NCBI GenBank assembly: GCA_963769885.1
Contig: CAVYNH010000007.1
Coordinates: 1-64,000 of the forward strand
Source: Methanobacteriota archaeon
GTDB lineage: Archaea > Thermoplasmatota > E2 > DHVEG-1
Length of the DNA: 64,000 nt
Reading direction: 5' to 3'
This document shows positions 1 to 59,878 of the stretch, piece by piece. The stretch's first letter is position 1; every line of letters starts with the position of its first letter. A model generated the notes under the pieces. It ran no database searches and was not told the DNA's origin. It worked only from the letters and a program-made list of their open reading frames with translations. The position numbers were made by a program, and so were the translations under genes.

Positions 1-189
1 AAACAGAAGACCAAGGAGACCGTGGTTTTAGAAAAAAAGATTGACATCCTGCCGAAGACGCGGGTGGAGTGCCCGAAGTGCGGGCATAATGAGGCGTTCT
101 GGGTCCTGCGGCAGACCCGGGCGAGCGATGAACCGGAGACGCGCATCTACACGTGTGTGAAGTGCGAGCACCGTTGGCGCGCGTACTGA
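1..189 (+). CDS. tfs: Transcription factor S (TFS/RpoM), 3' part
   Basis: Frame 1 reads ...KTRVECPKCGHNEAFWVLRQTRASDEPETRIYTCVKCEHRWRAY*: TFIIS-type Zn ribbon with the QTRxxDEP motif. Not in the ORF track. Confidence 0.93.
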   Translation, partial: KQKTKETVVLEKKIDILPKTRVECPKCGHNEAFWVLRQTRASDEPETRIYTCVKCEHRWRAY

Positions 190-295
190 CGCTGGTTCGG
201 ATGGCGGCCGTCCCTTCTCCGCTTGCTACGGCAGTTCAATTCCCGAACGTTTATTAACAAATTTTGATAGGGTCTTCGATAAGGGGATGAATTCA

Positions 296-561
296 ATGGA
301 AACCGCTACCGATAAAAAAACGACAAGATCAGCAAGATGCAGTTCGGCGAAGACCACCTCATCACGTAGTTCTCCGCCGACATCCAGAAATTCCTGCCAC
401 AGCTGCTCTCACCCACACCGGCCTGGGCCTGTCCCGACGGCCACTACACCATCGAACTCGTCCCAGGATTCGACACCTCCGCCATCACACCCTACATCTC
501 AGAGATAGCATCCCACCACCCCAGCCCCCGCTCTCGAAGCAGGATACCCCTCCTCATTTAG
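296..561 (+). pseudogene. Probable small disrupted gene (frameshift at A7 run plus in-frame TAG)
   Basis: TATA-like TTTATTAA near 250 and ATG at 296. A host-like C-ending codon frame (337-561) reads MQFGEDHLIT*FSADIQKFLPQLLSP... with TAG at 367-369. Confidence 0.4.
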
Positions 562-610
562 GGAAAAATATATAAATAAACAAAAGAATAGAAACAACGA
601 GGTTCGTGTT

Positions 611-1255
611 ATGAGCCACACCAAAAGCATCATTGCCCTCGGCATCACCATCCTGATCCTCACCGGAACCCTCCCGGCCCTCGCCGCCACCCCTACAGTC
701 ACCAAAAGCGATGAGAGTTCCGCCATCCAAGCCTTCTTCGACCGCATCGACACCGCCGCCGCCACCTCACACTCCCTCCGAGAATTCCTCGACAAGCTCT
801 ACGATCTCTGCCGCGACAAGACCCTCGCAGGCCACCCCCTGCTGCAATCCCTGGCCGACCGCATCAGAACGTGGTGCAACAAAAACCCCCTCTACACCCT
901 CTTCGGCCTGCCCCTCGGCTCCGCCCTCTCAAGCAAACCTGGCCACTTCGTTATCAGCTTCGGCACCTACCACCGCTACAACCCCTTTAGGCACAACACG
1001 CTCTCCTTCATCAAGGAACGCCTCAGCCTCTGGCACTACCGCAGCCAGAACAACCTCTTCAAGGGCCGTACCCTCATCCTCGACCGCCACCCCTTCGGCA
1101 TCGGCCAACGCCTCCAAGGGCCGCAGATCGGCCTCATGAAAGGCTTCCGCGGCGTCTACTGGGACCATGAAAGCAGGCTCACCGACAATAGCTACCTCTT
1201 CTTCATGGGCAGCGCCGACCGGGTCCGAGCCTTCGACCTCACCCCCTTCCACTAA
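611..1255 (+). CDS. Secreted hypothetical protein (paralog of 1428-2075)
   Basis: Signal peptide; C-terminal RTLxxDxHPFxI...GxQxGxMxxFxGVY...RVRxxDLxPF motif shared with the neighbour. Confidence 0.8.
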   Translation: MSHTKSIIALGITILILTGTLPALAATPTVTKSDESSAIQAFFDRIDTAAATSHSLREFLDKLYDLCRDKTLAGHPLLQSLADRIRTWCNKNPLYTLFGLPLGSALSSKPGHFVISFGTYHRYNPFRHNTLSFIKERLSLWHYRSQNNLFKGRTLILDRHPFGIGQRLQGPQIGLMKGFRGVYWDHESRLTDNSYLFFMGSADRVRAFDLTPFH

Positions 1256-1427
1256 AACACAAAACCCACAGGGAAAAAACCTCCCTTTCTTTTTCTCATT
1301 TTTACACCAATCAGATTGAAATTTCCTTTCTCCAGTAGAAATCAGGTAAAGGGGAGAAAATTATATAAATACTAAAGTTAATATAGTCCTAACTTAATAA
1401 TTATTCTAACCGCATGAGGGAAGACCC

Positions 1428-2075
1428 ATGAAAAAAAGAACAGGAATTCTCGCCATAAGCATGATCCTCCTCTTAACAAGCCTTTCCGTTTCACCCGTCT
1501 TCGCCCAGCAGACCTCCCACCCCCTCGCCACCCTCGTTTCCGACCGCCTCAGCCTCACGAACAAGGACATCAACGCCCTCGACACCTTCTACGCCTCCCT
1601 CCTCGGCGACCTCGCCGGCGTCAAAGACCTCGCCGGCTTCAACAAGCTCATCGACCGATACATCCTCCGCTACGGCGACCACCCCCTCTTCCGATTCCTC
1701 CACCGCCTCGCCATCTATGCCACGCTCGAACGCCACCTCATCTGCTTCAGTACCCTGCGGACCAGCGCCTGGGTCCTCAGTATAGGCAGCGTCAACCGCT
1801 TCTTCTGCCGCCAGCCCTTCCACTTCAACTTCTACCGCCCCTACACCTTCTGGTTCTACGGCAACGTCGCCGACGCCGCCATAAAAAGCCGCACCCTCGT
1901 CATCGACTTTCACCCGTTCTCCATCCGTAACGTCGACGGCCGGCAGCTCGGCTTCATGACCAACTTCTACGGCGTCTACCTCCAACGCGACCGATCACTG
2001 CTCGGCGGCGAACACACCTTCATCTTCGGCCACGCCCAGCGCGTCCGCGTCCTGGACCTCTCACCCTTCAACTAA
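1428..2075 (+). CDS. Secreted hypothetical protein (paralog of 611-1255)
   Basis: Signal peptide MKKRTGILAISMILLL...VFA; shared C-terminal motif; TATA box TTATATAAA upstream. Confidence 0.8.
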   Translation: MKKRTGILAISMILLLTSLSVSPVFAQQTSHPLATLVSDRLSLTNKDINALDTFYASLLGDLAGVKDLAGFNKLIDRYILRYGDHPLFRFLHRLAIYATLERHLICFSTLRTSAWVLSIGSVNRFFCRQPFHFNFYRPYTFWFYGNVADAAIKSRTLVIDFHPFSIRNVDGRQLGFMTNFYGVYLQRDRSLLGGEHTFIFGHAQRVRVLDLSPFN

Positions 2076-2160
2076 ACACCACCACCCTTCTTTTTTTCAT
2101 TTCTTTTTTTTCACGGAGAATAAACGTTATAACAGCAGCACCTTTTCCCCCTGATGTAGC

Positions 2161-2685
2161 ATGCGACCTGACGACATCACGATCATCCGCAGCGCCCGAC
2201 GGCGCAAGACCATCCAGACCAAATACTGCAACGGCCGCCTCTGGATCTACCTCCCCGACGGCATGCCCAAAGACGAGGAAGACCGCTGGGTCGCCCGCAT
2301 GGTCAAACGACACGAACGCATCCAGCAGCGCGACCACCACACCCGCAGCGACCTCTGGCTCGAGCAACGCGCCCGCGGCCTCAACGCCCGCTACTTCGAC
2401 GGCCACCTCACCTTCTCCATCCGCTTCGTCGACAACCAACGCCACCGCTTCGGCAGCTGCACCCATGCCGACAGCACCGTCCGCATCTCCACCCAAGTCA
2501 AAGACTTCCCCCTCTGGGTCAAAGACTACGTCATCATCCACGAACTCGCCCACCTCCTCCACCCCAACCACTCCAAGAAATTCTGGCAGGCCGTCTACCG
2601 CTACCCCCTCGCAGAACGCGCCCGCGGCTACCTCCTCGCCATCTCAGACCTTACTGGACAGCCAAAGAAACAAGAACTGGACTAA
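2161..2685 (+). CDS. YgjP/DUF45-like (M48-related) zinc metallopeptidase/hydrolase
   Basis: RSARRRKTI N-terminus, FGSC, DYVIIHELAHLLHPNHSKKFW. Confidence 0.88.
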   Translation: MRPDDITIIRSARRRKTIQTKYCNGRLWIYLPDGMPKDEEDRWVARMVKRHERIQQRDHHTRSDLWLEQRARGLNARYFDGHLTFSIRFVDNQRHRFGSCTHADSTVRISTQVKDFPLWVKDYVIIHELAHLLHPNHSKKFWQAVYRYPLAERARGYLLAISDLTGQPKKQELD

Positions 2686-2694
2686 AAAAAGGTC

Positions 2695-3219
2695 TTACTT
2701 CCCTGAGTAGACGGCGTGCTGCCCGGCCCGATGGCCCGCCGCAATCAGGCGGTACGTCTCCGCATTCTTCCGGATCGTCTCCACAAATTTCGGATCTTGT
2801 CGTACCACCTTCCCGGGGATGCCCACCACCAGGCTTCCGGGCGGGACCACACAGTTCTCCGTCACCAACGCACACGCGCCGATGATGCTGCCGGTGCCGA
2901 TCACGGCGCCGTTCAACACCGTCACATGGATCCCGATGAGACAGTCATCCTCGATCGTCGCGCCATGCACGACCGCCGCATGCCCAATGGACACATGTCG
3001 TCCAATCTTCAATGCATGCTCACGGTCCGCATGCAGCACACAGCAGTCCTGCACATTCGAACCATCCCCGATAGTGATACAGTTCTGATCCCCACGAATT
3101 ACCGCATGAGGAAAAACCCCACAGTCCTTGCCGATCCTCACATCACCAATGATGACCGCGCTGGACGCGACATAACACGAGGCGTGAATCTGCGGACTCG
3201 TTTTCATGTCACCCACCAA
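2695..3219 (-). CDS. Gamma-class carbonic anhydrase family protein (hexapeptide repeats)
   Basis: IIGDVRIG, IRGD, NVQDxCVLH, IGHxAVVHG motifs; the start may be the ATG at 3207. Confidence 0.92.
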   Translation of the reverse strand: MVGDMKTSPQIHASCYVASSAVIIGDVRIGKDCGVFPHAVIRGDQNCITIGDGSNVQDCCVLHADREHALKIGRHVSIGHAAVVHGATIEDDCLIGIHVTVLNGAVIGTGSIIGACALVTENCVVPPGSLVVGIPGKVVRQDPKFVETIRKNAETYRLIAAGHRAGQHAVYSGK

Positions 3220-3308
3220 CAGGCTAGAACCATATAGTTTTTACCTTATACCAACAACCATACGTAATCTATTTATCCTCTCTCTCGCTCATAGGGCCGA
3301 AGAGACAG

Positions 3309-3710
3309 ATGTCCATCCTCATCACTAATTACGGCACGCATGCCGGGGCCGTCTGGCATACCCTGAACGCCAACGGCGAGCTGAACGAAGAACGACTCCG
3401 AACGCTCACCCACCTGCATGATGAGGACCTCCACGCCGCCATCGGCTGGCTGGCCCGAGAAAATAAGATCCGACAGCAACCCCACGGCTACAGCCTGGGA
3501 GAGACCAACCTCGTCCCCAGCATTGGTAAGAACGCCGGGATGGTCTGGCGCGCCCTGGATATCTGGGGTGACGTCTCCGCCCACTCCCTCCTTCGCCTCG
3601 TCCGACTTACTGAAAGAGACTTCTACGCCGCCATCGGCTGGCTCGCATGCGAAGGAAAACTCGAGGCAGCCACAGACCCGAACAACACCGTCGTCTTCCA
3701 CCTCCGCTAA
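3309..3710 (+). CDS. Tandem winged-helix protein (DUF2582-like, two copies)
   Basis: Two repeats of GxxAGxVWxxL...AAIGWLAxExK. Confidence 0.85.
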   Translation: MSILITNYGTHAGAVWHTLNANGELNEERLRTLTHLHDEDLHAAIGWLARENKIRQQPHGYSLGETNLVPSIGKNAGMVWRALDIWGDVSAHSLLRLVRLTERDFYAAIGWLACEGKLEAATDPNNTVVFHLR

Positions 3711-3715
3711 CCTAT

Positions 3716-4276
3716 CTACTCTTTTCCCCGACGACGGCCAAGTCCCTTGAATTTCCCAACAATCCCAGAAAGCTTTGACGTCTTCCCCTCGGAAGACTTG
3801 CCTTTTCGAGACAACACCCGTCTCAGCTTCGCAAACCGGCCGCTCGCCACCGGCTCCTCGCCACCTTCTGCACGCTGTTTCCGATGGAACAATCGAATCT
3901 CGGGCGGCTTCGGCCGCGGCCGATCAAACCCATACAGGTTCCCCTCTTCGTCAAGCTGAAGAGAAAACGTGCTGCGCACCGGCCCACTCGAGGCAACCGT
4001 CTCAACGTCGAACAACCGCTGACGCTTAAAAAGAGGCGGTCGCTTCACCCGCCGCTCACGACGAAAAAAACCCTTGTGAGCTTTAACCACAGGCGGTTCC
4101 GGCTCCATCACCGGGATAGAAACATCCGGGACCGACGGCTCTACCTCCTCGGGAAAAACCGTCTCCAGAGGCACGGTCTCAATCACAGGCGACCGGATTC
4201 GCTGCTCGAGGCCATCCAACTCCTCAAACAGCGCCATGATCTCCTCATGACTCTTCACCGATTCCTTCTTCTCCAC
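3716..4276 (-). CDS. Hypothetical protein: acidic N-terminus, basic/aromatic (KGFF, RLF) patches
   Basis: GTG start after GAGGGG SD; coherent ORF. Confidence 0.65.
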   Translation of the reverse strand: MEKKESVKSHEEIMALFEELDGLEQRIRSPVIETVPLETVFPEEVEPSVPDVSIPVMEPEPPVVKAHKGFFRRERRVKRPPLFKRQRLFDVETVASSGPVRSTFSLQLDEEGNLYGFDRPRPKPPEIRLFHRKQRAEGGEEPVASGRFAKLRRVLSRKGKSSEGKTSKLSGIVGKFKGLGRRRGKE

Positions 4277-4402
4277 GTCAGCCCCTCATACTATCTCAGC
4301 TCAACACTCAACTCGACACCAAATCGGCAAAGGGTTAAAAAAAACTATGCCCAGCCCTGCCATGATTTTTTTTGGCAGAGCCCCGGCACCGCCAAGGTCT
4401 CG

Positions 4403-4534
4403 CTACTCCACGGCCTCGTACCGGAACGTGGACTCGTCACAATGCGGACAGTACTCCTCCACAACGTAGACGTGGTCGATTTTCCGAACGGGAACCTGGC
4501 GTACTTCCTGTTGACAATTTTTGCAGCAAGTCAT
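4403..4534 (-). CDS. Small Zn-ribbon protein (43 aa)
   Basis: MTCCKNCQQEVRQVPVRKIDHVYVVEEYCPHCDESTFRYEAVE*; two CxxC pairs; TATA-like TTTATATA upstream on the minus strand. Not in the ORF track. Confidence 0.7.
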   Translation of the reverse strand: MTCCKNCQQEVRQVPVRKIDHVYVVEEYCPHCDESTFRYEAVE

Positions 4535-4819
4535 AACAATCACTTGACTCACAAAAAAACAATGCCCTACAATTAATAGAGACGTGCCACTATATAAATC
4601 TGTCTATGGAGGAGCCGGCGTCCAGAGCCCCCCTACCTCATCCACCACCAAACCGCCTGTGAATCGTTCTCGACGCAGCCTTCAACCATCCTTTCAATAC
4701 CACACTCCTCACAGACCTTCAACCGCACCTCGGCCTCTCGTTTATCCCCCCACTTTCCCTGCCCCTTCAAACGAATGACGCGCCGAAAACCCCAAGGACC
4801 CCACACCACGGCTGTTTAC

Positions 4820-5260
4820 TCAAGGTGCCCGAACCACCTTCACCATCGCCGCCTGCACAAACCGCGGATGCCCCACCGCCGACACCCGCACATCCAAATA
4901 CCCCTCCCAGACCCCCGGCTCAAGCGACACCGGCAGACCGACCACCACCCGACCCGACGCATCCGTCCTCCCCACCCCAGCACCCCCCAGCCCGACGATC
5001 ATCACCGTCGCCGCCGCCTGCGCATGACCAAGACGGTCAGCCACCGACACCTGAAAACTCACAGTCCCCGACGCATTCCCCCCAACCGACCCCACCAACG
5101 GCCTCACGGAAACCACCAGCGGCTGCGACACCACCCCCGCCGTCGACAAAAACCCAAGAATCGCCCCCAACGCCACCACCCCGATAATCAACGACACCAC
5201 CAGACGCAGCGGCAGCCCAATCACCGCCACCTCATCCTGAAAAAACCCTCTCAACCTCAT
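4820..5260 (-). CDS. Pilin-like protein (class III-type signal) with Ig/carboxypeptidase-regulatory-like domain
   Basis: MRLRGFFQDEVA/VIGLPLRLVVSLIIGVVALGAIL; GRTDASGRV beta motif. Confidence 0.7.
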   Translation of the reverse strand: MRLRGFFQDEVAVIGLPLRLVVSLIIGVVALGAILGFLSTAGVVSQPLVVSVRPLVGSVGGNASGTVSFQVSVADRLGHAQAAATVMIVGLGGAGVGRTDASGRVVVGLPVSLEPGVWEGYLDVRVSAVGHPRFVQAAMVKVVRAP

Positions 5261-5356
5261 TCACACAACCTCCCAGCTACCGTATTAATTTCGAACGATA
5301 AATACTTATTGCCCAATACAATTCCAGGTCCCACGAATATCTGGGAGGAACACGAC

Positions 5357-5848
5357 ATACACTTCAGACAACTCAGGTCGCAGCAGCACGCGGTCCTCGG
5401 GCTCCCCATCTACCTCACCGTCGCCCTCATCATCCTCACCGTCGTCCTCGTCTACCTCACCGCATCCCTCCAAGACATCACCCGGACCCAAGACCTCCAC
5501 CGCTGCACCGAACAAACCCATCGCATCCTCACCGAAGCAACCCAGATGTACACCTACAGCATCGACACCGCCCAAGTCCACCTCACCCTCGACGTCCCCA
5601 CCTCACTGCGCCTCCTCGCCTTCGGCGGCCTGCCTACCAACAACACCCAACAAATCCTGCACGACCAGACCACCGCCTCCAACTACTTCTCCCTCGACCG
5701 CGACGGAACCATCACCACCGGTCATACCCAAGCACAATTTTGCGGACAGAACACGACCACCGCCGCCATCTTCCCCCCAGGACACTACCACCTCACCCTA
5801 GAACTAATCCAGACACCAGAGGGCCCCTATGTCAAAATTACCTACTAA
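5357..5848 (+). CDS. Pilin-like protein, apparent ATA start
   Basis: GGGAGG SD at 5343-5348, then (I/M)HFRQLRSQQHA/VLGLPIYLTVALIILTVVLVYL; later VPTSLRLLAFGG resembles VPDGCVFVSFGG in 39009-39563. Confidence 0.65.
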   Translation: MHFRQLRSQQHAVLGLPIYLTVALIILTVVLVYLTASLQDITRTQDLHRCTEQTHRILTEATQMYTYSIDTAQVHLTLDVPTSLRLLAFGGLPTNNTQQILHDQTTASNYFSLDRDGTITTGHTQAQFCGQNTTTAAIFPPGHYHLTLELIQTPEGPYVKITY

Positions 5849-6425
5849 TTCCCACGCGGTGCTCGGCCTCTCGCTCGCCAACCTCGCTTTGTTCCTCGCC
5901 AGCGGCCTCCTCCTCTGCATCATCCTCGAAGGAGCCTACGGCAGCCTCTGGGAACACACCGCACAGCTCCAGGCCACAGCCGACACCCTCAACACCTCAG
6001 TCGAAACCCTCAGCGCCGCATACCAAGACACCCGCCTCACCCTTCCGCCGCTCTCACAATCCCCCACCATACACCTCTCCTGCTCAACCCAATACATCCA
6101 CGTCTGGTCCCAGAGTGGCTCCACCACCTCCCTCTCCCTTACCACCTCATGGACGATTCCTCCCTGGCCGCGACCCAATGCCACCTGGCAATCAGGCGAC
6201 GAACTCCACCAATGGCTCAACGCCACCTACGGCCACCTCGGTACGCCCCAAGACCCCATCAATGAGACCATCCTCCAGACCTTGAGGGCGCAACAAGAGG
6301 CGGCCGCCCTCGCCCTTGCCTACGACCCCCTGGAGTATACCACTACGTCTACCATCTTTATCGAAAAAACCTACCTCTCCGTTGAACAGGAGCCGCCCTA
6401 CGCGGTTTTGCTCCTGTATCAATAA
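5829..6425 (+). CDS. Pilin-like protein
   Basis: MSKLPTNSHA/VLGLSLANLALFLASGLLLCIIL; overlaps the previous gene. Confidence 0.65.
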   Translation: MSKLPTNSHAVLGLSLANLALFLASGLLLCIILEGAYGSLWEHTAQLQATADTLNTSVETLSAAYQDTRLTLPPLSQSPTIHLSCSTQYIHVWSQSGSTTSLSLTTSWTIPPWPRPNATWQSGDELHQWLNATYGHLGTPQDPINETILQTLRAQQEAAALALAYDPLEYTTTSTIFIEKTYLSVEQEPPYAVLLLYQ

Positions 6426-6589
6426 ATTGTTACAAAAAAAATACCAGATATTCGACCGAATCAGGAAAATATTCCTGGGAAGAAAAAAGAAATGGAGAAA
6501 AATGAGAGGGATAAAACCGTCACCATTAAATAGCCAACACTGCATTCTTTTTCTACACCTGAAAAGAGAGCAAATGGGGAGGCATATGG

Positions 6590-7327
6590 ATGTTTACCGC
6601 TAAAGTAAAATCGGATATTATAAAAGGCATAATCGATGTCACCTCGCCTCTGGTCAACGAGGCGAAGTTCAACATCACAGCGAAAGGAATCACCCTACGA
6701 GCGGTAGATCCAGCCCACGTCGCTATGGTCGACCTCGAACTTCGCCAGACCGCCTTTGAGGAATACAAAGCAAGCGAGATGGAGCTTGGCATCGATCTCG
6801 ACAAGCTCAGCGGTATCATGAAGCTCGCTGCTGCCGGGGACAGCGTGACCCTGGAGTATGATGAGGAGACGAACCGGCTTGTTGTCAGGATTGGCAACCT
6901 CGTCCGCCGTATGGGCTTGATTGATACGGCAGGAATGCCGGACTCCAAGGTGCCGCACCTCGACCTCCCCGCCAAAGCAGTCGTCAAGGCCGGGGAGTTG
7001 AGCAAAGGGGTGCGTGCCTCAGAAGCAGTCTCCGATCACCTGGCCCTGAACATCGACAAGGAGTCCTTCGAGCTCTACGCCGAGGGGGACACCGATACCG
7101 TGAACCTCAAGCTCCCCAAGGAGATGCTCCTGGAGCTGAAGGCGGACGGGAAGTTCCGCAGCCTCTTCTCGATTGATTATTTCAGCAATATGATCAAGCC
7201 TGTGCGCAGCGAGGATCCCATCACGATTAACCTGGGTAATGATAACCCGATCCGCGTCGATTTTGACATCGCGGATAAGAACGGTCACGTGACGTACCTA
7301 CTCGCTCCGCGGATTGAGTCCGAATAA
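6590..7327 (+). CDS. pcn: DNA polymerase sliding clamp PCNA
   Basis: LRAVDPAHVAMVDL, ELGIDL, YLLAPRIE motifs. Confidence 0.98.
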   Translation: MFTAKVKSDIIKGIIDVTSPLVNEAKFNITAKGITLRAVDPAHVAMVDLELRQTAFEEYKASEMELGIDLDKLSGIMKLAAAGDSVTLEYDEETNRLVVRIGNLVRRMGLIDTAGMPDSKVPHLDLPAKAVVKAGELSKGVRASEAVSDHLALNIDKESFELYAEGDTDTVNLKLPKEMLLELKADGKFRSLFSIDYFSNMIKPVRSEDPITINLGNDNPIRVDFDIADKNGHVTYLLAPRIESE

Positions 7328-7359
7328 AACAATGATCTTAGGGTGAGGGAGGCTGAGGC

Positions 7360-7668
7360 TTGCGCTTCCGGCGGTACCGCTATATTCTGGTGAGAATCGA
7401 GTGGGGCCCTGCCAAGTCCGCCTCGGAGTCCGTGTTTTTCCAGGCGGTAAAAGCCTGTTGCGAGCAGCACCTTGGTCTACGCGCGCAGGAGATAGGCCTT
7501 CGGCTTTTTGACTATGGTCAGGGCTGGGCTATCATTCGGTGCACCCAGGCGCATCGGGCCGCGGTCATGAAGTCGCTGTGTAGCCTTCGAGATGTTGGCG
7601 GTCTGCCCGTCATGGTTGTTTCCGAATCGACGTCAGGGACGTTGCGGTCGTTACGGCGGCGGGTTTAA
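7360..7668 (+). CDS. rnp2: RNase P protein component, Rpp14/Pop5 family
   Basis: RRYRYILVRI, AIIRC, TSGTLRSLR motifs; TTG start. Confidence 0.85.
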   Translation: MRFRRYRYILVRIEWGPAKSASESVFFQAVKACCEQHLGLRAQEIGLRLFDYGQGWAIIRCTQAHRAAVMKSLCSLRDVGGLPVMVVSESTSGTLRSLRRRV

Positions 7669-8189: not shown

Positions 8190-8292
8190 GGTTAGCTCCC
8201 CTTGCTGCGTGCCATTATCCTAGTGATATATAAATTTATAGAACGAACTACTAGATTTCCTGGGGGGAGCCTACAAGAATGTTCGTTATGAA

Positions 8293-11144: not shown

Positions 11145-11208
11145 GGATGGTCCCCCACTCATTGTGGGGGTAACCGTCGTCCCTTAAAGAAAGTTTCTTC
11201 GTTTTTGC

Positions 11209-47764: not shown

Positions 47765-47801
47765 AAAGGTTAAAATTCTGGGTTGGCTTATGGGGGGTAC
47801 T

Positions 47802-48737: not shown

Positions 48738-48741
48738 ACTA

Positions 48742-49002: not shown

Positions 49003-49094
49003 AATCAACTAGGAACCATACATACCATTTTAGGACAGAACAACCCCACGCGGCCGTAGATAATGCGCCGCAGGCCTGAAAGCAAAGCCCGTTT

Positions 49095-50087: not shown

Positions 50088-50090
50088 AGA

Positions 50091-50273: not shown

Positions 50274-50367
50274 CTCTCGCCCCCCCCATCTTGAAAATAC
50301 ACACTCAAGACACACCTGAGATAGTCTTGCCTTATATTAAGTTTTCTGATTTTTAAAGCCTAAGGGC

Positions 50368-50904: not shown

Positions 50905-50961
50905 AGCAAACCTGCTATATGCTTTATAATTTCAGGGAGAGGCATCAATTAAGGAGCATTC

Positions 50962-51375: not shown

Positions 51376-51397
51376 ACGGGTGATATGGAGGTAGATT

Positions 51398-52354
51398 ATG
51401 ACTGATGAACCAGTAAAAATGCGAAGACGTATAGATTTTGTTATGGAACCTCAAGTAATAGATGCGAAAAAGGGGATCGTCGGGGTTTCTCTTGTCCCCA
51501 ATCCGAAGAGATATGATTGGGTAACCGGAAAGGATGGAAAGAAGTATTTGCATGATAAATTTGATGATTACCTTATGCCTGAAGACCTTCTACAAGACCT
51601 TGCGAAGAGTATGGAAGGGCAGCCGATATTTTACCAACCCCCTGAGATTGAGGATGCTGATAAATATGTTGAATCAAGAAAACCCCATGTTTCAAAATTG
51701 ATCGAGAGTGGCCAGACTGATATTCAGTTCAAAGATAAATCTGAAGAATACCTTGAATCACTCGCTGTAGATAACCTCGGTTTTGCGATAATGTCAATAG
51801 ACTTAGTTGGCTCAACCAAATTAGTCCAGGAACTTGGCGAAGAAGGCTATACTAGAACGATTCAAACTCTGCTCTATGAAATGAGCAATGTCATTCCAAA
51901 ATTCAAAGGTCAAGTTTTAAAATATACTGGAGATGGACTTATTGCATATTTCCCAGAGCCTAATTTTATTACTAAATGCGACTTAGCTTTAGATTGTGCT
52001 CTCACTATCAGAAGACTTGTTTATAATGGACTGAATCCTCTTCTTGAACAGCATGGTCTTAAAAAGGTAAACATAAGAATTGGATTAGATGCTGGCAGTG
52101 CATCAGTTATCATCGTCGGAAGTCCAGAGACCAAACAACACAAAGACATTATTGGATCGGTTATCAATATTGCAGCGAAAATTCAAGCAAAAGCCACACC
52201 CGGAGGCATACTCATTGGGGATGAGATGCAGAGAAACTTGCATACAGATTGGAAATTACACTGTAAAAAATTCCCCATTGAACCCTGGCCCTATAAAGAT
52301 AAACAAGGAAAGCCTTATCCAGTTTTCAGATACGAAGATGAAGAAAGTCGATGA
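51398..52354 (+). CDS. Class III nucleotide (adenylate-type) cyclase with unknown N-terminal domain
   Basis: SIDLVGST, LKYTGDG, RIGLDAG, KDIIGSVINIAAKIQ. Confidence 0.9.
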   Translation: MTDEPVKMRRRIDFVMEPQVIDAKKGIVGVSLVPNPKRYDWVTGKDGKKYLHDKFDDYLMPEDLLQDLAKSMEGQPIFYQPPEIEDADKYVESRKPHVSKLIESGQTDIQFKDKSEEYLESLAVDNLGFAIMSIDLVGSTKLVQELGEEGYTRTIQTLLYEMSNVIPKFKGQVLKYTGDGLIAYFPEPNFITKCDLALDCALTIRRLVYNGLNPLLEQHGLKKVNIRIGLDAGSASVIIVGSPETKQHKDIIGSVINIAAKIQAKATPGGILIGDEMQRNLHTDWKLHCKKFPIEPWPYKDKQGKPYPVFRYEDEESR

Positions 52355-52372
52355 AGAATCGTTTAAAGGCGA

Positions 52373-52876
52373 ATGAGTGAAAATATGACTAGAACCAACC
52401 AGTTCAGGAAAGAATTTGTCGATTCATGTACGATGATTGGCTCTAGTATTATAACCGCAATTGTTTTTTACCTTGCATTAATCAATTCATGGCCTTATCA
52501 ACAAAAACTACTTTGGATTATTGTTTTCGTCTCTATTTATCTGGCATTTTTAGCTGCCAGCATACTTTTTTTGGTTCTATTCTATACGGCCTCCCACTAT
52601 TACGGCGGCTACAAAGATTTTCTCAAGAGATTGATTCCCGGTATCGCGGGAGGCGTGATAGTATTCACAGTTACACAGTTCATGGCGAGGCTCCCTAATA
52701 ATCCCAATATCGTTGATACCGTTATCCCTAATATTCTCTGGACTGTGGCAGATGTCTTCCTGGTATTCATAATCTTATTTTCCCTGTATCTGGTCGTTGC
52801 ATTAACAAAAAAAAGAAACACCAAGATACGAAGAAAGCCGCTCTACCCCGCCCGATCAACCGGAACCTCTAACTAA
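52373..52876 (+). CDS. 4-TM membrane protein
   Basis: Four hydrophobic helices and a basic tail; 18 bp downstream of the cyclase. Confidence 0.7.
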   Translation: MSENMTRTNQFRKEFVDSCTMIGSSIITAIVFYLALINSWPYQQKLLWIIVFVSIYLAFLAASILFLVLFYTASHYYGGYKDFLKRLIPGIAGGVIVFTVTQFMARLPNNPNIVDTVIPNILWTVADVFLVFIILFSLYLVVALTKKRNTKIRRKPLYPARSTGTSN

Positions 52877-53080
52877 CGATGGTAAAACGAAAAAATCCAA
52901 GCGTGGTAAACCGTAGCATGAAACTATAGGCAGATTTATATAGAAGATTCCGACTTGGGATGGTTTGACCTCCTCATTTTTGGTTCTCTCCTGTAATTAG
53001 GTAAAACGGCTTTTGCTGCTTACTTTAACCAAAAAGGAGTTCGGCAAGATCTAAGTGTTTAACGTAAGCGTCCTCAGTTC

Positions 53081-54043
53081 TTATTCCAAGGTTTGATCGA
53101 TGATTTCTTTCAACTTCTGTTCTCTTTTATCCGGGGTGTAGCAGGCGAGGATGCGCACTCGGGCTGGTGCCCCGGGTAATGTTAAGGCTTTCTTGATGGC
53201 AGCGACTGTTTTTTCAACGTCACCATACGGCACCACGATGCCTGTGCCCCCGGCGATCTCGGCAATTGCGCCCTTATCTGAGACAACGGGGACGCACTCA
53301 CACGCCATCGCCTCGCCCAAAGCCACGCCGAACGCCTCATGGAATGATAGTTGGCAGTAGACTTTGGCTTCCTGATAGTAGTGAAGAAGGGCGTCGTCAG
53401 TGACAAAGCCAGTGTACTTGACGTTACCGATCTTTTGTGCGGCTAACTCCGCCGCGATGTCGTCCTCTAGGCCGCCGATGACCGCAAATTCCAGGGGCTG
53501 GAGCTGTCGCGCAGCTTCGAGAAAGGTCTTCAGTCCCTTTCGTCCAATATTTTTACGGTTCACAAAACAGGTGGTGACAACGAGATCGCGTTTCTTGCCG
53601 GCGGGGTAAAACTTCGTGGCATCCACAATATTATACACCAACCGGGATGCGGGGTACTTCGCGTTATTTTGGATCTCTCGCTGGTTGGTCTCCGACACCG
53701 CGAGCACCACTGTGGCGTGATCAAGGACGAATCGGACCATCCGACTGGTGAGCGGCCGGGACATGAGGCCGTACTGGAACTGCGGTTCACAGGCGACGTC
53801 ATAGCCGCCCGCCACAACGATGACAGGACGGTGGATGAATCGCGTGACGAGACTGGTCAGCAATGCATGATAGCTTGCGAACCAGATGTATACTGCGTCT
53901 GATTCCCATATGGCATGCATGAATGCTCCGAGGCGGCGGATGTTAAAATGGATTGGAAGAACGGCGTAGTGTTTTGATAAGAGTTCGATGTCCTTGCGGA
54001 CAAAACTTGATTTCTTTAGGTAGATGACCGCGATTTTTTTCAT
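53081..54043 (-). CDS. Glycosyltransferase family 4
   Basis: RKGL, HEAFGVALGEAMAC (EX7E motif). Confidence 0.92.
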   Translation of the reverse strand: MKKIAVIYLKKSSFVRKDIELLSKHYAVLPIHFNIRRLGAFMHAIWESDAVYIWFASYHALLTSLVTRFIHRPVIVVAGGYDVACEPQFQYGLMSRPLTSRMVRFVLDHATVVLAVSETNQREIQNNAKYPASRLVYNIVDATKFYPAGKKRDLVVTTCFVNRKNIGRKGLKTFLEAARQLQPLEFAVIGGLEDDIAAELAAQKIGNVKYTGFVTDDALLHYYQEAKVYCQLSFHEAFGVALGEAMACECVPVVSDKGAIAEIAGGTGIVVPYGDVEKTVAAIKKALTLPGAPARVRILACYTPDKREQKLKEIIDQTLE

Positions 54044-54057
54044 TGTCTGATTCTGGA

Positions 54058-54717
54058 TTATTTCTTGACTTTTTCCCAGTCCTTTAGAAAACTCTTGATG
54101 CCGTTGTCGGTGAGGGGGTGTTTGACCATTTTTCGGATGATTTCGGGTGGCACGGTGGCGATGTCGGCGCCGATGCGTGCAGCGTCGATGACGTGGATGG
54201 GGTGCCGGATGCTGGCGACGATGACCTCGGTCTCGATCTCGTAGTTGTTGAAGATTTCCATGATTTCCTCGACGAGCAGCATGCCTTCCTGGCCGTTGTC
54301 GTCGAGTCTGCCGATGAAGGGGCTGACGAACGTGGCGCCGGCCTTGGCCGCGAGCAGCGCCTGGTTCGCAGAGAAGATCAAGGTCATGTTGGTCATTATG
54401 CCTTGACGGGACAGGGTCTTGACGGCTTTGAGGCCCTCAGGCGTCATGGGGATTTTGATGGCGATGTTCTTGCGGTATTTCTCCGGGGTCTTTTTGACGA
54501 GGTCCTGGGCTTCTTTGACCATACGGTCGGCTTTTTCGCTGATGACTTCGAGGCTGATGGGTCCGTCGACGATGGTGAAGATCTGAGTGAGGACTTCTTG
54601 GAAGGTGTAGCCGCATTTCGCTAGGAGCGTGGGGTTCGTGGTGACGCCGTCGATGACGCCCCACGAGGCAAGCTCCCGGATTTCGTTGAGGTCTGCGGTG
54701 TCGACGAAAAGTTTCAT
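54058..54717 (-). CDS. tal: Transaldolase / fructose-6-phosphate aldolase (TalC/Fsa family)
   Basis: [34 protein letters not shown]. Confidence 0.95.
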
Positions 54718-54868
54718 GGTCAGTTCACATCCTGGCGGTTGGGTATTTCCTCTGCGTTCATAAGCATTTGGTTATAGCCTTTTCCAGATATGAAATGATA
54801 TACGTCAAAAAGAATCGAAACATATATATATCCACGTATACATTACATGTCCTTGCCAGGAGGGGATA

Positions 54869-55024
54869 ATGCCTCTTACTCGGAAGGCGCGCATGGTGGG
54901 CAGTAGCCTCGTAATCACCATTCCGAGCCAGCTCGCAAAAGCCCATAATATCAACGATGGGGATGCACTTGAGATCATACCGTTAGGGATGGGAGAATTC
55001 AAAATTCGGAAGGTAAAGAAGTAG
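54869..55024 (+). CDS. AbrB/MazE/SpoVT-family DNA-binding protein (51 aa)
   Basis: MPLTRKARMVGSSLVITIPSQLAKAHNINDGDALEI; GGAGGG SD. Not in the ORF track. Confidence 0.88.
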   Translation: MPLTRKARMVGSSLVITIPSQLAKAHNINDGDALEIIPLGMGEFKIRKVKK

Positions 55025-55025
55025 G

Positions 55026-55051
55026 GGTGCCCTGGGTGGAGACAGGGCACC
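55026..55051 (+). terminator. GC-rich hairpin directly after the abrB stop codon
   Basis: GGTGCCCTG-N8-CAGGGCACC, perfect 9-bp stem. Confidence 0.5.
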
Positions 55052-55112
55052 TCACATGCACTCTTACAACGAAACCAAAAAAAGGGAAGGATGAAGTAGT
55101 GAGGAGAGACCC

Positions 55113-55445
55113 ATGAGTGTCACTGGGCCGCATCAACAGGGGCTGCATGCAGATGTCCAGCTGCTGTCTTTGGAGAGCGGCCCGGCACTCGGGGTTTTCG
55201 TCTCCCTGGGAAAAGCCCCCTTGGTGCTAGTCGCGGTCCCGCAGGGGTATGTGATGTGCGGGTATTTGAATATGGAGACGGCGACCAAGCTTGGTGACTG
55301 CGCCGGTCGCGTCACAGGGGTATCTTCTTTTGAGAATCTACTCGCCGCACCCGTCACCTGGGTGTCTGAGGCGGCGAAGGCGCGCGAGCTGCGTGAGGGG
55401 ATGACCGCGCGGGAGTTCCTGAACGCGGCGGCAAAAACCCATTAG
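55113..55445 (+). CDS. YunC/DUF1805 family protein
   Basis: GYVMCGYLNME, AGRVTGVSSF, GMTAREFL. Confidence 0.88.
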   Translation: MSVTGPHQQGLHADVQLLSLESGPALGVFVSLGKAPLVLVAVPQGYVMCGYLNMETATKLGDCAGRVTGVSSFENLLAAPVTWVSEAAKARELREGMTAREFLNAAAKTH

Positions 55446-56602
55446 TACGCATTCTTCAGGATCGAGTAGACATCGGTCTCGTCAAGTCTTCTGAACTTGC
55501 CGATGTCGCTTGTGGAGACGATGCTGTGGGCCATGTCCTTGAGTTGATGTTCTTGGACGCCGACGTCCTTGAGCCGCGTCGGCATCCCTAGGCTTGTGAA
55601 GAATGCCTTGGTCCGTTCGATGCCTTTCTTGACGATCGCCTCTTTTTTTCTGCCTTCGATGCCCCAGATCCGCTGGGCATAGTCAACGAACCGGCTGGCG
55701 GGGTCCTCACCGCTGACGTATTCCATCCAGACAGGAGTCAGGATGGCGAGGCCGATGCCGTGGGTGACGTCGGTGACCGCGCTGACCTTGTGTTCGATGG
55801 CATGCGTCGCCCAGTCTGCGATTTTTCCGTAGGTGATGAGGCCGTTGAGGGCGAGGCTGCTGGTCCACATGAGTTGGGCACGGGCGTTGTAGTTGGTCGG
55901 CTCGCGCATTGCGATAGGCCCGAATTTGAGGACTGTGTGCAGGAGCGCCTCAGAGATGCGGTCCTGGACGTAGGTTTCTGGGGTGGGGCTGAAGTACTGT
56001 TCGAGGATGTGGCTGTAGATGTCGACGACGCCGGCTGCGGTCTGTTCCCGGGGGACGGTAAAGGTCAGGCTGGGGTCGAGGATTGAGAACTGGGGGCGGA
56101 GCAGGTCGGACCGGACGGCGAGCTTCTGCTTGGTCTGGGTGTTGGTGATGACGGCGTTGCCGTTCATCTCGGAGCCGGTGCCGGCAACGGTGAGGGCCGT
56201 GCCTAGGGGCAGAGGGTGTTGGACCTGGGCGTCGCCGGTCATGAAGTCCCAGGGGTCGCCGTGGTAGGGGACGCCGGCGGCAATGGCCTTGGCGCAGTCG
56301 ATGACGCTGCCGCCGCCGACCGCAAGGAGGAACGTGAGATCGTGGTCGCGGCAGAGGCGGATGCCGTCATTGACGCTGGCAAGGCGGGGGTTGGGCTGGA
56401 CGCCGGGGAGCTCCTCGTAGGTGATGTGATGGGTCTTGAGGATGGCGGTGATTTCTTCGTACATGCCGAGTCGTTTGATGCTACCGCCGCCGTAGACGAG
56501 CAGGATGCGGTGGGAGTATCTGGGGATTTCGTGTTCGAGGTTGTGCAGGGTGTCGCGGCCGAAGTATACGCGGGTTGAGACTGCGTACTTGAAGTTCTCC
56601 AT
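55442..56602 (-). CDS. Iron-containing alcohol (butanol) dehydrogenase
   Basis: YGGGSIK, PNPR, AVGGGSVIDCAK, GTGSEMN, WATHAIEH, HGIGL. Confidence 0.95.
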   Translation of the reverse strand: MENFKYAVSTRVYFGRDTLHNLEHEIPRYSHRILLVYGGGSIKRLGMYEEITAILKTHHITYEELPGVQPNPRLASVNDGIRLCRDHDLTFLLAVGGGSVIDCAKAIAAGVPYHGDPWDFMTGDAQVQHPLPLGTALTVAGTGSEMNGNAVITNTQTKQKLAVRSDLLRPQFSILDPSLTFTVPREQTAAGVVDIYSHILEQYFSPTPETYVQDRISEALLHTVLKFGPIAMREPTNYNARAQLMWTSSLALNGLITYGKIADWATHAIEHKVSAVTDVTHGIGLAILTPVWMEYVSGEDPASRFVDYAQRIWGIEGRKKEAIVKKGIERTKAFFTSLGMPTRLKDVGVQEHQLKDMAHSIVSTSDIGKFRRLDETDVYSILKNAY

Positions 56603-56696
56603 CTATTTCAGTCCTCCACCAGGGAAATCGTGTATGGGGTGTGTTATTTTAAACATTCTGAGAAACAAAGAAAATAAGGAGAGAGAATTAATCTCT

Positions 56697-57569
56697 TTAG
56701 GGCGGGTTAGGCGGCGTCGGCGACAGTGGAGACTCTTCAGTAGTCGGGGCCGCTGGTTTTTCTTCTCCTTTCTTCTTGCTTGGGCGGTCCGCGATGATGC
56801 GAATGAGGTAGGCGAAGACGATGATGACGATCATGACGGCGGTGTAGGCGGCGAGGTCCGGCTGGATGCCGTATTTAGGAGGGTCGGGCTGGAGACGTTT
56901 GATGATGATGCCGATGTAGGCCCAGACGAAGACCAAGGTATACGGGAGGTCGCGGCGGATCCAAATGACGAGGAGGGCGACGATGGTGGCGACGGCGAGG
57001 ATAGTGCCGAACCAGGTGGCCTCGCTGATGCCGAAGCCGTCCCAGCCGATGGCGACGAGGTAGGCGGTAACGTTGGCAATGGTGGCGACCGTAATCCAGC
57101 CAAGGTAGACGCTGAAGAGCAGACGGGCGCCGACCCATTCCCTTCGGGGAGCAGTGGTCTTGCCGATGCCCAGGCGGGTGTAGATCTCGATGAGTGACAG
57201 CAGCAGGATGACCATGGGCAGTAGGGTCCAGTTGATGTATTTGTACTGCCAGATGAAGATCCAGGCGATGTTGGCGGCGCAGCTGAGCATGAAGTAGCCG
57301 CCGATCTTGGTGACAGTCTCAGGGACATCGCCTTTCCGGACGCCCTTAAGCTGGTAGACGAGGAAGACGATGATGAGGGCGTAGATGATGCCCCAGATGG
57401 CGAACGTGATGCCGCTGGGGGTGAAGAGGTTGTTGACCTTTAAGGCGTCGATGACATCTCCTGTTTTAATGTTATTAATAAAGCCGATGCCAGCGAGGAT
57501 GTTGACGGCGATGGTCGCAAGCCCGAGGATGAGGTTACCTGCCTGCAGGAGGGAGTGTCGTTTCACCAT
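56697..57569 (-). CDS. TspO/MBR-related tryptophan-rich membrane protein
   Basis: FTPSGITFAIWGIIY, NIAWIFIW, FSVYLGWITVATIAN. Confidence 0.82.
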   Translation of the reverse strand: MVKRHSLLQAGNLILGLATIAVNILAGIGFINNIKTGDVIDALKVNNLFTPSGITFAIWGIIYALIIVFLVYQLKGVRKGDVPETVTKIGGYFMLSCAANIAWIFIWQYKYINWTLLPMVILLLSLIEIYTRLGIGKTTAPRREWVGARLLFSVYLGWITVATIANVTAYLVAIGWDGFGISEATWFGTILAVATIVALLVIWIRRDLPYTLVFVWAYIGIIIKRLQPDPPKYGIQPDLAAYTAVMIVIIVFAYLIRIIADRPSKKKGEEKPAAPTTEESPLSPTPPNPP

Positions 57570-57740
57570 ATCCTTGATTCCACCTCTCGTGGTAGTGGTG
57601 GACATCGTGCTGCCTGTTTATCTATCTATTGCGCTGGTCTTTCAGGATCATCGCCCATCTCAGGGGCAACATGATTGGAAAACTGAACGGCAGGCCGAGG
57701 CTTGATAGGGATGTCGTCGAGGATTGAGTTCGCGATGCTC

Positions 57741-59258
57741 TTATCTTTGGGGGATGGGAGGTTCTGTTCTCCCGTAGGTGGTGGTGATGAGGCGTAGGAT
57801 GTCGGCGAGGTGGAGGGAGAGTTGGGGTTGGGTGACGCGCCAGGTCCAGTTGCCGTGGCTCTGGTTGGGGGTGTTCATGCGGGCGTCGGAGCCGAGGCCG
57901 AGGAGATCTTGCATGGGGATGATGGCTGTGTCGGCGACGGAGCTGTGGGCGAGTCTGATGAAGACCCAGTGGACGGTGTCGCTGGTGACGTCTTGGGCGG
58001 TGTAGTCGTTGATGTGTTGGCGGATGGTGGGGTCGGTTTCGGTGTCGTACCAGCCGCGGATGGTGTTGTTGTCGTGGGTGCCGGTGTAGATGACAGAGTT
58101 TTTGGCGACGTTGCACGGGAGGTAGGGGTTGGTGGTGGGGTCGTCGAAGAAGGCGAATTGGAGGATGTCCATGCCGGGGAGGTGGTAGTGGTCGCGCAAT
58201 TCCCTGACGTCGGCGGTGATGCAGCCGAGGTCTTCGGCGATGAGTTGGATGTTGGGGTGGCGGCGGTAGAGGCGGTCGAAGAAGCGGGTGCCGGGGCCGG
58301 GTGTCCAGGCACCGTTTTTTGCGGTGGGGTCGGTGGCGGGGACTTCCCAGTGGGCGGTGAAGGCGCGGAAGTGGTCGATGCGGATGTAGTCGTAGAGGGT
58401 TTGGGTGTGGGCGAGTCTGGTGATCCACCAGGTGTAGGTGGTGGTATTCTTCCAGTTGTAGATGGGGTTTTTCCAGAGTTGTCCGGTTTTGCTGAAGTAG
58501 TCGGGTGGGACGCCGGAGACGACCGCGGGGGTCTTGTCGGCGTTGAGTTTGAAGATGTCGGGGTTGGCCCAGACGTCGGCGCTGTAGTAGTCGACGAAGT
58601 AGGGGAGGTCGCCGATGAGGTGGATGGCGTGGCCGTTGCAGTAGGCTTTGAGGGCCTGCCAGTGGTGGAAGGTGAGGAACTGTAGGATTTTTTCTGCGGT
58701 GATCTGATCTCGGAGTTGGTCGTTGATTTTTTTGAGGGCGGTGGGTGTGCGGTCTTTGATGTCTGCGGGCCAGTCGGTCCATGGCGCGTTGAAGTGGGCT
58801 TCGCAGGCGTGGTAGGTGGCGTAGTCGTCGAGCCAGAAGGCGTTGGCGGCGCAGAAGGCGTCGTAGGCGCAGTGGAGGCTTTGGTCCGGGTGTTTGGTGA
58901 AGCGGGCTGGGATTTTATTGAAGAGGGTTTCTTTGTAGGCGAGGGCGTCGTCGTAGTCAACGCGGGTGTCTGAGAAGGAGGGGGGGTTGGCGAGGTCTAC
59001 AGGAGTGAGGAGTCCTTGGTTTTTTAGGATGTCGGGGCTGAGGAAGTAGGAGTTGAGGGCGAAGGCGGAGGCGCTGGCGTAGGGGGAGGTGTTACCGGGG
59101 TTGATGGGGGTGAGGGGAAGGATCTGCCAGAGGCGTTGGCCGGCGGCTTTGAGGAAATCGGCGAAGCGGTAGGCGCCGGGGCCGAGGTCGCCGATGCCGT
59201 AGGGCGAGGGAAGGGAAGAAATGTGAAGTAGGATGCCGCTGCTGCGCAGATGTCTCAC
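57741..59258 (-). CDS. malQ: 4-alpha-glucanotransferase (GH77)
   Basis: SGILLHISSLPS, WQILPL, GVPPDYFS, RIDHFR, AEDLG, YTGTHDN. Confidence 0.97.
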   Translation of the reverse strand: MRHLRSSGILLHISSLPSPYGIGDLGPGAYRFADFLKAAGQRLWQILPLTPINPGNTSPYASASAFALNSYFLSPDILKNQGLLTPVDLANPPSFSDTRVDYDDALAYKETLFNKIPARFTKHPDQSLHCAYDAFCAANAFWLDDYATYHACEAHFNAPWTDWPADIKDRTPTALKKINDQLRDQITAEKILQFLTFHHWQALKAYCNGHAIHLIGDLPYFVDYYSADVWANPDIFKLNADKTPAVVSGVPPDYFSKTGQLWKNPIYNWKNTTTYTWWITRLAHTQTLYDYIRIDHFRAFTAHWEVPATDPTAKNGAWTPGPGTRFFDRLYRRHPNIQLIAEDLGCITADVRELRDHYHLPGMDILQFAFFDDPTTNPYLPCNVAKNSVIYTGTHDNNTIRGWYDTETDPTIRQHINDYTAQDVTSDTVHWVFIRLAHSSVADTAIIPMQDLLGLGSDARMNTPNQSHGNWTWRVTQPQLSLHLADILRLITTTYGRTEPPIPQR

Positions 59259-59293
59259 CGCCTATGAGGAGGTCCTCTCGTTGTTTTTTTTTA

Positions 59294-59878
59294 TCAACCG
59301 TCGTCTCCAGCCTTTTTCCCGCCGTGTACTATCATCGTCCATTCTGCCAATGCCTCCAGCGTGTCCCTGATAAGTCGTCGTGTTCTCTCGTCGGTAAGCC
59401 GACCCATATCGTCGCACTTCTTGGTGACGTCGGCCACAAGGACTTGCGGGAAATTCAACGGATGCATGTTGCAGGCGGAAAAGACATTATGCAGGGCCAT
59501 TTGGCAGCGGGCGGTCCCAAAGCGGCCAGTGGATGCTCCCATCACGGCCACGGGTTTCCCATCGAGAACGGATGTCTCCGAAGGTCGCGATGCCCAATCC
59601 AACGCGTTTTTCAGCACTCCTGGGATCGAGTAGTTATATTCCGGCGTGCAAATGAGGAGCGCGTCGGCTTCGGCGATCGCCTGTTTCAAGGCTTTGACCC
59701 GCTCCGGGTCGCCCTGATCCTCGATATCCTGGTTGAAAAGTGGGATGCCGGCAAGGTCAAAGACCCTGATGTCAACGGAGTCAGGGGCGAGTTCGATTGC
59801 TGATTTGAGAAGCGCCTTATTGTAGGATGCTTGCCGCAGGCTCCCAGCGATTCCCAGGATTCTGAGTTGTTTCGTCAT
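59294..59878 (-). CDS. NADPH-dependent FMN reductase
   Basis: GSLRQASYN, TPEYNYSIPGVLKNALDW. Confidence 0.95.
   Translation of the reverse strand: MTKQLRILGIAGSLRQASYNKALLKSAIELAPDSVDIRVFDLAGIPLFNQDIEDQGDPERVKALKQAIAEADALLICTPEYNYSIPGVLKNALDWASRPSETSVLDGKPVAVMGASTGRFGTARCQMALHNVFSACNMHPLNFPQVLVADVTKKCDDMGRLTDERTRRLIRDTLEALAEWTMIVHGGKKAGDDG

Follow-up and report, generated by a model that had tools for sequence, protein, structure and literature searches.

In budding yeast, the leading strand has an excess of A and C and the skew jumps at each of the many replication origins of a chromosome, with further jumps at some termination zones (Marsolier-Kergoat 2012, PMC3459929). Bacterial and archaeal neutral sites also carry a strand-linked bias that switches at the origin, i.e., the origin/terminus (ori/ter) skew (Paravel et al. 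2026, PMC12999951), and a 2026 survey of 874 archaeal replicons concluded that archaea hardly produce strand-specific mutational skew (PMC12999951). Here we describe a strand skew of alternating sign in the first 64,000 nucleotides of contig CAVYNH010000007.1 (forward strand, assembly GCA_963769885.1), hereafter called the window. The host genome, G000, is that of an uncultured sediment archaeon (Thermoplasmatota; 2.09 Mb in seven contigs, C1 to C7; 92% complete). It has an archaeal 16S rRNA and a PCNA 74 to 91% identical to those of Thermoplasmatota genomes, e.g., SM1-50 (83%), from which we place it in DHVEG-1/Thermoprofundales, and the skew is present on all seven contigs. No earlier description of such a pattern was found in a literature search, most subscription journals being outside its reach.

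The GC-skew jump at yeast origins is ~9%, whereas the skew at four-fold degenerate sites in G000 swings by up to 1.9 units; G000 is, moreover, prokaryotic, with a period of 12 to 14 kb and switch sites that have no sequence motif. Unlike bacterial and archaeal ori/ter skew, the G000 pattern has a polarity opposite to the usual bacterial one, no replichore-scale component, and ~280 switches. In Haloferax and Thermococcus, an origin carrying origin recognition boxes (ORB) coexists with initiation elsewhere and need not dominate (PMC7776575, PMC11005403, PMC12639248, PMC13136892). However, the known extra origins are few and recombination-dependent initiation is described as occurring at any position, with no strand switch, while the G000 sites are discrete and partly conserved between genera. 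The sense-strand C bias of Haloferax (PMC12999951) and the gene skew of fungi (PMC3315797) share with G000 a sense strand that is C-rich near promoters and G-rich toward 3′ ends, visible both at four-fold sites and in amino acid use. Both follow genes, in contrast to the far stronger skew of G000, which crosses gene and operon ends and oscillates within one operon; in a 50-kb Haloferax plasmid used as control, the standard deviation (SD) of gene-level skew was 0.10, versus 0.43 in G000.

In vertebrate mitochondria, one strand carries an A>G plus C>T signature that forms a single gradient per genome. G000 has a similar amplitude and the same signature on one strand, but the affected strand alternates ~280 times and G, not T, dominates the four-fold sites. 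GRINS (genetic repeats with intense nucleotide skews) also combine intense GC and TA skew with recoding of proteins (Nivina et al. 2021, PMC8256042). GRINS are, however, repeated elements in polyketide synthase and other genes, while the G000 domains are single-copy, span core genes, and tile the chromosome, and self-comparison of window positions 1 to 59,300 found no repeat of at least 250 bp at 78% identity or more. The architecture belongs neither to prokaryotic ori/ter skew, which keeps one sign over a replichore with a G/T-rich leading strand, nor to ORB-defined multiple origins, each of which carries ORBs, as a rule beside an orc1/cdc6 gene, nor to GRINS. The organization is genuine, if odd: strand-asymmetric mutation in a new form that behaves like the replication-origin skew of yeast. 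Whatever its cause, a skew of mitochondrial strength that flips ~280 times and reshapes the proteins is a sharp exception.

Strength, layout, and mutational nature of the skew

An initial annotation of the window had described alternating C/A- and G/T-rich blocks, and their coordinates are correct: GC skew in 1-kb bins varies between -0.61 and +0.46, AT skew moves in antiphase to it, and three hand counts of 60-mers (31C:5G, 10C:29G, and 34C:9G) proved exact. At four-fold sites the GC skew reaches -0.96 (at 16 kb and 42 kb) and +0.94 (at 10 kb and 58 kb). The SD of the 1-kb bins is 0.53, about three times that of a permutation null in which gene strand and mean sense bias were kept (mean 0.17, maximum 0.19, 500 runs). 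Switches within single genes, also reported earlier, are real, the skew going from -0.68 to +0.19 in gene 17250-19022, from +0.45 to -0.04 in 20818-23373, from -0.23 to +0.62 in 27292-31122, and from -0.45 to +0.44 in 43092-45020. The accompanying protein-level bias extends genome-wide, with His at 3.7 versus 1.8%, Thr at 10.2 versus 4.3%, Val at 4.9 versus 12.8%, and Arg at 4.7 versus 7.0% on C versus G strands.

Genome-wide there are ~144 switches of each kind (~280 in total, ~140 paired domains), with a median block of ~6.3 kb, a quasi-period of 12 to 14 kb, and AT-rich islands that lack the skew. Switches, positioned by logistic fits, are named as read on the + strand: G-to-C (steps) and C-to-G (ramps). 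Nearly half of the steps (48%, versus 14% at random) have a divergent gap no more than 300 bp away, and the steps are marked by TATA-like words. Only a subset of promoters is involved: 104 nonconvergent gaps step by more than 0.6 and 327 by less than 0.2, with no word distinguishing strong from weak gaps in G000 or its relatives. The ramps are uniformly narrow (~1.5 to 2 kb wide, median 1.75 kb), with amplitude maxima 1.2 to 1.6 kb to either side; 123 of 135 fall inside genes, and they are 2.5-fold enriched near convergent junctions (30%, versus 12% at random). No anchoring word was found at ramps among words of 4 to 7 bases (GGCC occurs at 12% of strong ramps, versus 11% in the background, and CCCGGG at only up to 19%).

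In 85% of the coding bases lying in strongly skewed DNA, the C/A-rich strand is the sense strand, and 13% of genes are clearly G/T-rich in sense by a skew score that carries a sense offset; for genes and junctions we otherwise used a top-strand score that is symmetric between sense orientations. Gene strand has an r2 with skew of 0.13 in the window and 0.24 genome-wide, and about half of all switches occur within co-directional runs, so that gene direction matters without setting the sign. The view that the skew is independent of gene direction was therefore overstated, even though genes of both orientations do share one arm.

Within each arm, one DNA strand takes an excess of A>G and C>T, and which strand it is depends on position; the bias is mutational and not codon choice (the excess is derived from equilibrium base composition, the mutations themselves being uncounted). 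Genes with a C/A-rich sense strand have C at 95% of C/T sites and A at 77% of A/G sites, and those with a G/T-rich sense strand have G at 95% of A/G sites and T at 79% of C/T sites; four-fold sites are 85% C or 83% G, according to the type of sense strand. This mirror symmetry at synonymous sites leaves little room for codon selection. The skews of neighboring genes on opposite strands correlate (+0.46), and intergenic DNA leans the same way as synonymous sites. A model of 21 parameters, in which a single rate matrix is mixed with its complement, reproduces 60 composition values, all intermediate states included (root mean square 0.008), giving on the G/T strand 6.8 for A>G/T>C and 12.6 for C>T/G>A at equilibrium composition. 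Asymmetry in A>G and C>T alone is sufficient, strand-symmetric transversions fitting equally; transversion rates are not identifiable from composition. The two-fold-site mirror symmetry and the one strand-asymmetric matrix in varying mixture bear out the positional strand-specific mutation process that the initial annotation had put forward.

An artifactual or ordinary cause, such as misassembly, frequent inversions, codon selection, or amino acid composition, is very improbable. The G000 assembly does contain errors, with frameshifting indels in ~5 of 149 orthologs and a 19-kb palindrome opening contig C1, but the switches fall inside intact genes and the synonymous-site bias mirrors between strands. 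Between 6.6 and 17 kb of the window, gene order and orientation are the same as in relatives with little skew, and across the 7.3-kb ramp the sequence is 100% identical in a contig of 4,488 bp that was assembled separately and may come from the same sample. Furthermore, the sister species G001 has the same map at lower amplitude (r = 0.65, slope 0.44, 213 orthologs), its junction steps correlating with those of G000 (rho 0.60 over 132 junctions). Misassembly and inversions are excluded where tested, and assembly indel errors cannot create the pattern; gene strand and amino acid content, which the initial annotation had also listed as potentially explaining the skew away, likewise failed to account for it. 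As to the palindrome itself (C1:1-19,446), this 19.4-kb inverted duplication of 98.6% identity at the contig start is probably a fold-back assembly artifact.

Skew at the replication origin and in related genomes

Upstream of cdc6-1 (C6:261,630-262,032), an inverted ORB pair flanks an AT-rich element, an arrangement conserved across the family. It is the one full ORB locus in G000 (35 bits, the next best scoring 13), cdc6 loci numbering two. This predicted origin lies between co-directional genes, and across it the skew goes from +0.72 to -0.25, the fifth largest step among 413 tandem gaps. The same G-to-C step is found in relatives (G001, -0.80; G044, -0.72; G041, -0.53; G018, -0.51; G042, -0.41), where it is the largest at each locus and ranks 2/178, 2/110, 1/87, and 4/129 among junctions, while the mean divergent-promoter step in G044, G018, G041, and G042 is nil (-0.02 to -0.03). 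The origin arm is C/A-rich, and the effect fades within 3 to 8 kb (5 to 8 kb in relatives); no replichore-scale skew was detected in G000 or two single-contig relatives. The sign of the step and its short fade indicate that the strand leaving the origin 5′-3′ is C/A-rich and that the origin governs only a few kilobases. Most low-GC genera have little or no step at the origin. In both species of the genus, the ORBs have two copies of a 10-bp element (GAAGTATCCC-like) between them (G000 C6:261,630-262,032; L056:12,950-13,430), which is no marker of other switches; neither is AGTATCC, which is repeated in the origin.

The relatives compared were G001 (same genus as G000), G003, G008, G014 (a more distant genus), G018, G041, G042, G043, and G044. 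They form a graded series, with gene-level skew SDs of 0.43 in G000, 0.35 in G014, 0.27 in G001, 0.23 in G043, 0.14 to 0.17 in G041, G042, G044, and G018, and 0.11 in G003 and G008 (noise, 0.06). By comparison along this series (0.11 to 0.43), the gene responsible could be sought; four-fold-site GC (0.12 to 0.79 across genomes) tracks amplitude only loosely. The sawtooth of relatives has sharp G-to-C edges and, for the most part, gradual C-to-G rises. G014 (loci L219-L232, L161, and L032; GC 42%) has a sawtooth of its own with sharp G-to-C steps of up to -1.5, the five sharpest lying at gene ends or starts with TATA words, and is the cleanest genome for finding what defines step sites.

Checking the switch points in relatives showed that the map is partly conserved. 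The step at the promoter of the replication factor C (RFC) gene (window 11.7 kb) recurs in full in five other genomes, with sizes of -0.32 to -0.56 in four; another, after a probable adenosylhomocysteinase gene, is common to G000 and G043, and a further one to G000 and G014. No common motif was found among step sites recurring between genera.

Candidate mechanisms

Dispersed, promoter-linked bidirectional initiation, in which the leading strand becomes C/A-rich as it does in yeast, is in our judgment the best reading of these data, with a probability of roughly 45%. The G-to-C sites would be sites of bidirectional replication initiation, the ORB origin being one of ~140 and the remaining sites open promoter DNA without ORB. 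Forks would travel ~3 to 8 kb each way, mostly along transcription, and meet at the C-to-G ramps, and the leading strand (5′-3′ away from the site) would turn C/A-rich, a polarity shared with budding yeast and the reverse of that in bacteria. Chemically, the process might be deamination of the exposed leading-strand template or G-T wobble errors persisting in the new lagging strand. In a variant, origin-like loading and unwinding would take place at G-to-C sites without productive replication. Precedents are the A- and C-enriched leading strand and skew jumps at origins in budding yeast (PMC3459929) and dispersed initiation in archaea (PMC11005403, PMC12639248, PMC13136892). Slightly more tentative is the full proposition that the 2.1-Mb chromosome is replicated from ~140 discrete, promoter-linked, ORB-less sites ~14 kb apart instead of one to three origins, with the canonical origin one of many and yeast-like polarity.

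Several observations weigh against this reading. For strands to be near-pure beside ramps of only 1.5 to 2 kb, firing would have to be very efficient and nearly synchronous, or forks would have to meet barriers, and the amplitude is higher near ramps (0.60) than near steps (0.27 to 0.46). Head-on arms are not significantly shorter (p = 0.24 to 0.26), and a midpoint test of domain geometry did not discriminate. In G014, the skew does not step at the ORB origin, for all the strength of the sawtooth (SD 0.35); the six origin cases come from related genomes and are not independent; and the origin gap also contains the cdc6-1 promoter, making origin and promoter inseparable by sequence. Neither full ORB nor mini-ORB matrices predict steps, and mini-ORBs are not enriched at other steps. 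The presence of RNase HII argues against R-loop priming.

Somewhat unlikely, yet a serious rival, is that breaks or nicks cluster at the G-to-C sites, origin included, in open intergenic DNA, where 5′-3′ resection leaves 3′ tails of a few kilobases that deaminate before recombinational repair. Ordinary single-stranded DNA chemistry would then give the observed polarity, since the strand with its 3′ end toward the site should turn G/T-rich, and it is indeed A>G and C>T that carry the asymmetry. G000 encodes RadA and NucS, euryarchaea are known to use recombination-dependent replication, and in relatives the effect is greatest at the site and fades in 5 to 8 kb. Near-pure composition 3 to 6 kb away, however, would require that, in no less than 40% of the genome, breaks outweigh every other source of mutation, GC is only slightly lower at ramps, far from the sites (GC4 0.75 versus 0.85, GC2 0.66), and a single matrix describes all states, which is what a process common to every base should produce. 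Break resection would merge with dispersed initiation if the breaks seed recombination-dependent replication. The earlier suggestion of many closely spaced initiation zones gains real support from the G-to-C step that six related genomes share at the ORB origin, but with G014 lacking that step and resection predicting the same polarity, such zones are something we infer, not observe.

A little less probable again is a process launched from strong or bidirectional promoters that is carried several kilobases by RNA polymerase, in read-through or antisense, and mutates the template strand. It would account for the position of 48% of the G-to-C switches near divergent gaps and 30% of the ramps near convergent junctions, for the TATA-like words at steps, and for the C-rich sense strand in 85% of strongly skewed coding DNA. 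In its favor too, third-position skew in Haloferax runs against the gene strand bias (PMC12999951), and fungal genes are C-rich at 5′ ends and G-rich at 3′ ends (PMC3315797). Against it, about half of the switches lie within co-directional runs, and ribosomal protein operons, expected to be highly expressed and used as an expression proxy, are not uniformly C-rich: the all-plus S10-spc superoperon (C4:271.9-285.4 kb) oscillates through -0.85, +0.25, -0.77, and +0.58, and two further ones, with genes recognized from sequence, are G/T-rich in sense. G014, G018, G044, and G041 show steps or a sawtooth at a mean sense bias of -0.05 to +0.02 (0 to -0.05 in G044, G018, G041, and G042; +0.02 in G014); together with the oscillation of the ribosomal operons, this argues against plain transcription. 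Known transcription damage, too, hits the non-template strand, which would give the opposite sign. Placing the origins at the C-to-G ramps instead, with bacterial polarity (G/T-rich leading strand) and forks running head-on to most genes and halting at promoters, would fit the uniformly narrow ramps (median 1.75 kb), the maximal amplitude 1.2 to 1.6 kb to each side, and a shape like the upward skew jumps at human origins. This is improbable, as the ORB origin steps the opposite way in six genomes, 123 of 135 ramps are inside genes with no anchoring word of 4 to 7 bases, and it is the G-to-C edges that are sharp in relatives, the rises being mostly gradual.

Should dispersed initiation be correct, fork direction could be read from base composition across the whole genome of a prokaryote that uses origins in a eukaryote-like way. 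As to where origin-independent archaeal replication starts, the available data point to "anywhere." Were the G-to-C steps to be sites of initiation or breakage, they would provide ~140 named, partly conserved positions to test and would bear on the emergence of eukaryote-like, sequence-independent, promoter-linked origins with an archaeal replisome.

A loss of repair genes was sought and none was found, NucS, UDG, EndoV, Ham1, RNase HII, HhH-GPD, Nudix, and RadA all being present; the proofreading motifs of DP1 (PolD) are intact. A search of 25 genomes yielded no Y-family polymerase, and a Rev1-like C-rule was therefore dropped. A family-B profile search of 25 genomes gave no strong match (best E 1e-35), so that canonical PolB3 seems to be missing. 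G000 has a PolB2-like gene plus a conserved, very divergent PolB of 956 amino acids (aa) (L199; C6:605,461-608,328, minus strand), present in 28 of 29 genomes searched and 54 to 67% identical to its G044 counterpart; in several genomes, large insertions, in frame and probably inteins, interrupt it near residue 633. Matched by description, it is probably group B8, which is reported from all DHVEG-1 genomes and assigned to the clade that holds the catalytic domain of Pol epsilon (PMC7544198). Speculatively, this PolB (probably B8, Pol epsilon-related) and PolD might divide the two strands. An Exo II Gly-to-Ser change occurs in the divergent PolB of G000 and G001 only; being one of more than 10 changes common to the genus, it is a lead only as to the cause of the amplitude. 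The cdc6-2 gene (C7:394,333-395,515) and that for the PolD large subunit (C3:45,380-48,815, L091) are each split by a frameshift in G000. Since ~3% of orthologs are frameshifted, these splits are probably assembly indels; cdc6-2 is intact in G001.

Map of the window and minor observations

The arms, switches, and unskewed islands of the window are as follows (arm composition on the + strand).

300-6500: C/A-rich arm, genes both ways; four-fold GC skew -0.52 to -0.86, minus gene 4820-5260 scoring -0.91
6500-8000: C-to-G ramp, fitted center ~7,300, at the PCNA gene (6590-7327, plus); putative meeting zone
8000-13900: G/T-rich arm with gcvPB and gcvPA (minus), RFC small subunit (plus), and 12750-14087 (minus); four-fold skew to +0.94
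11662-11798: divergent promoter gap upstream of RFC; partial G-to-C step, 0.70 to 0.44; TATA-like words, no ORB seen
14088-14580: G-to-C step in divergent promoter region, fit 14,150; putative initiation site
14600-17800: C/A-rich arm with secretion/pilus ATPase genes (plus; Pfam T2SSE); skew to -0.96
17800-19200: C-to-G ramp within gene 17250-19022, fit 18,550
19200-22800: G/T-rich arm within an all-plus operon, sense strand G/T-rich
22800-23700: gradual G-to-C transition, fit 23,250, near the overlapping junction of two plus genes, with no intergenic gap
23700-27800: C/A-rich arm; skew -0.44 to -0.73
27800-29200: C-to-G ramp within gene 27292-31122, fit 28,500
29200-35800: G/T-rich arm, mainly plus genes; skew to +0.91
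35937-38228: AT-rich, unskewed insert with a serine recombinase, within a G-to-C switch; scores 0.07 and 0.03, GC 0.38
38229-43300: C/A-rich arm, plus and minus genes; skew to -0.96, minus gene 39009-39533 scoring -0.72
43300-44800: C-to-G ramp within gene 43092-45020, fit 44,100
44800-48083: G/T-rich arm, plus and minus genes; plus gene 47186-47764 scores +0.81 and minus gene 45552-47090 +0.83
48100-52900: AT-rich island, skew weak or absent, probably a recent acquisition; GC 0.38 to 0.48, gene scores -0.04 to +0.25
53081-59258: G/T-rich arm; skew +0.32 to +0.94

The serine recombinase (35,937-37,554) has a CcrA/B- and XisF-like match below family cutoffs and apparently occupies two reading frames. 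Two type IV pilus-like clusters with paired ATPases lie at 14,581-33,282 and 39,009-45,020, the first encoding very large proteins (850 to 1,300 aa) with a pilin N terminus. A contig labeled "Bacteroidetes bacterium" (L030) encodes a PCNA 81% identical to that of G000, suggesting a misbinned archaeal contig. Recent repeats in G000, examined for signs of ongoing mutation, show few differences between copies. A 708-bp repeat, probably an insertion element, is present in seven copies on C7 at 98 to 99.9% identity, the first of them (64,565-65,272) just past the window.

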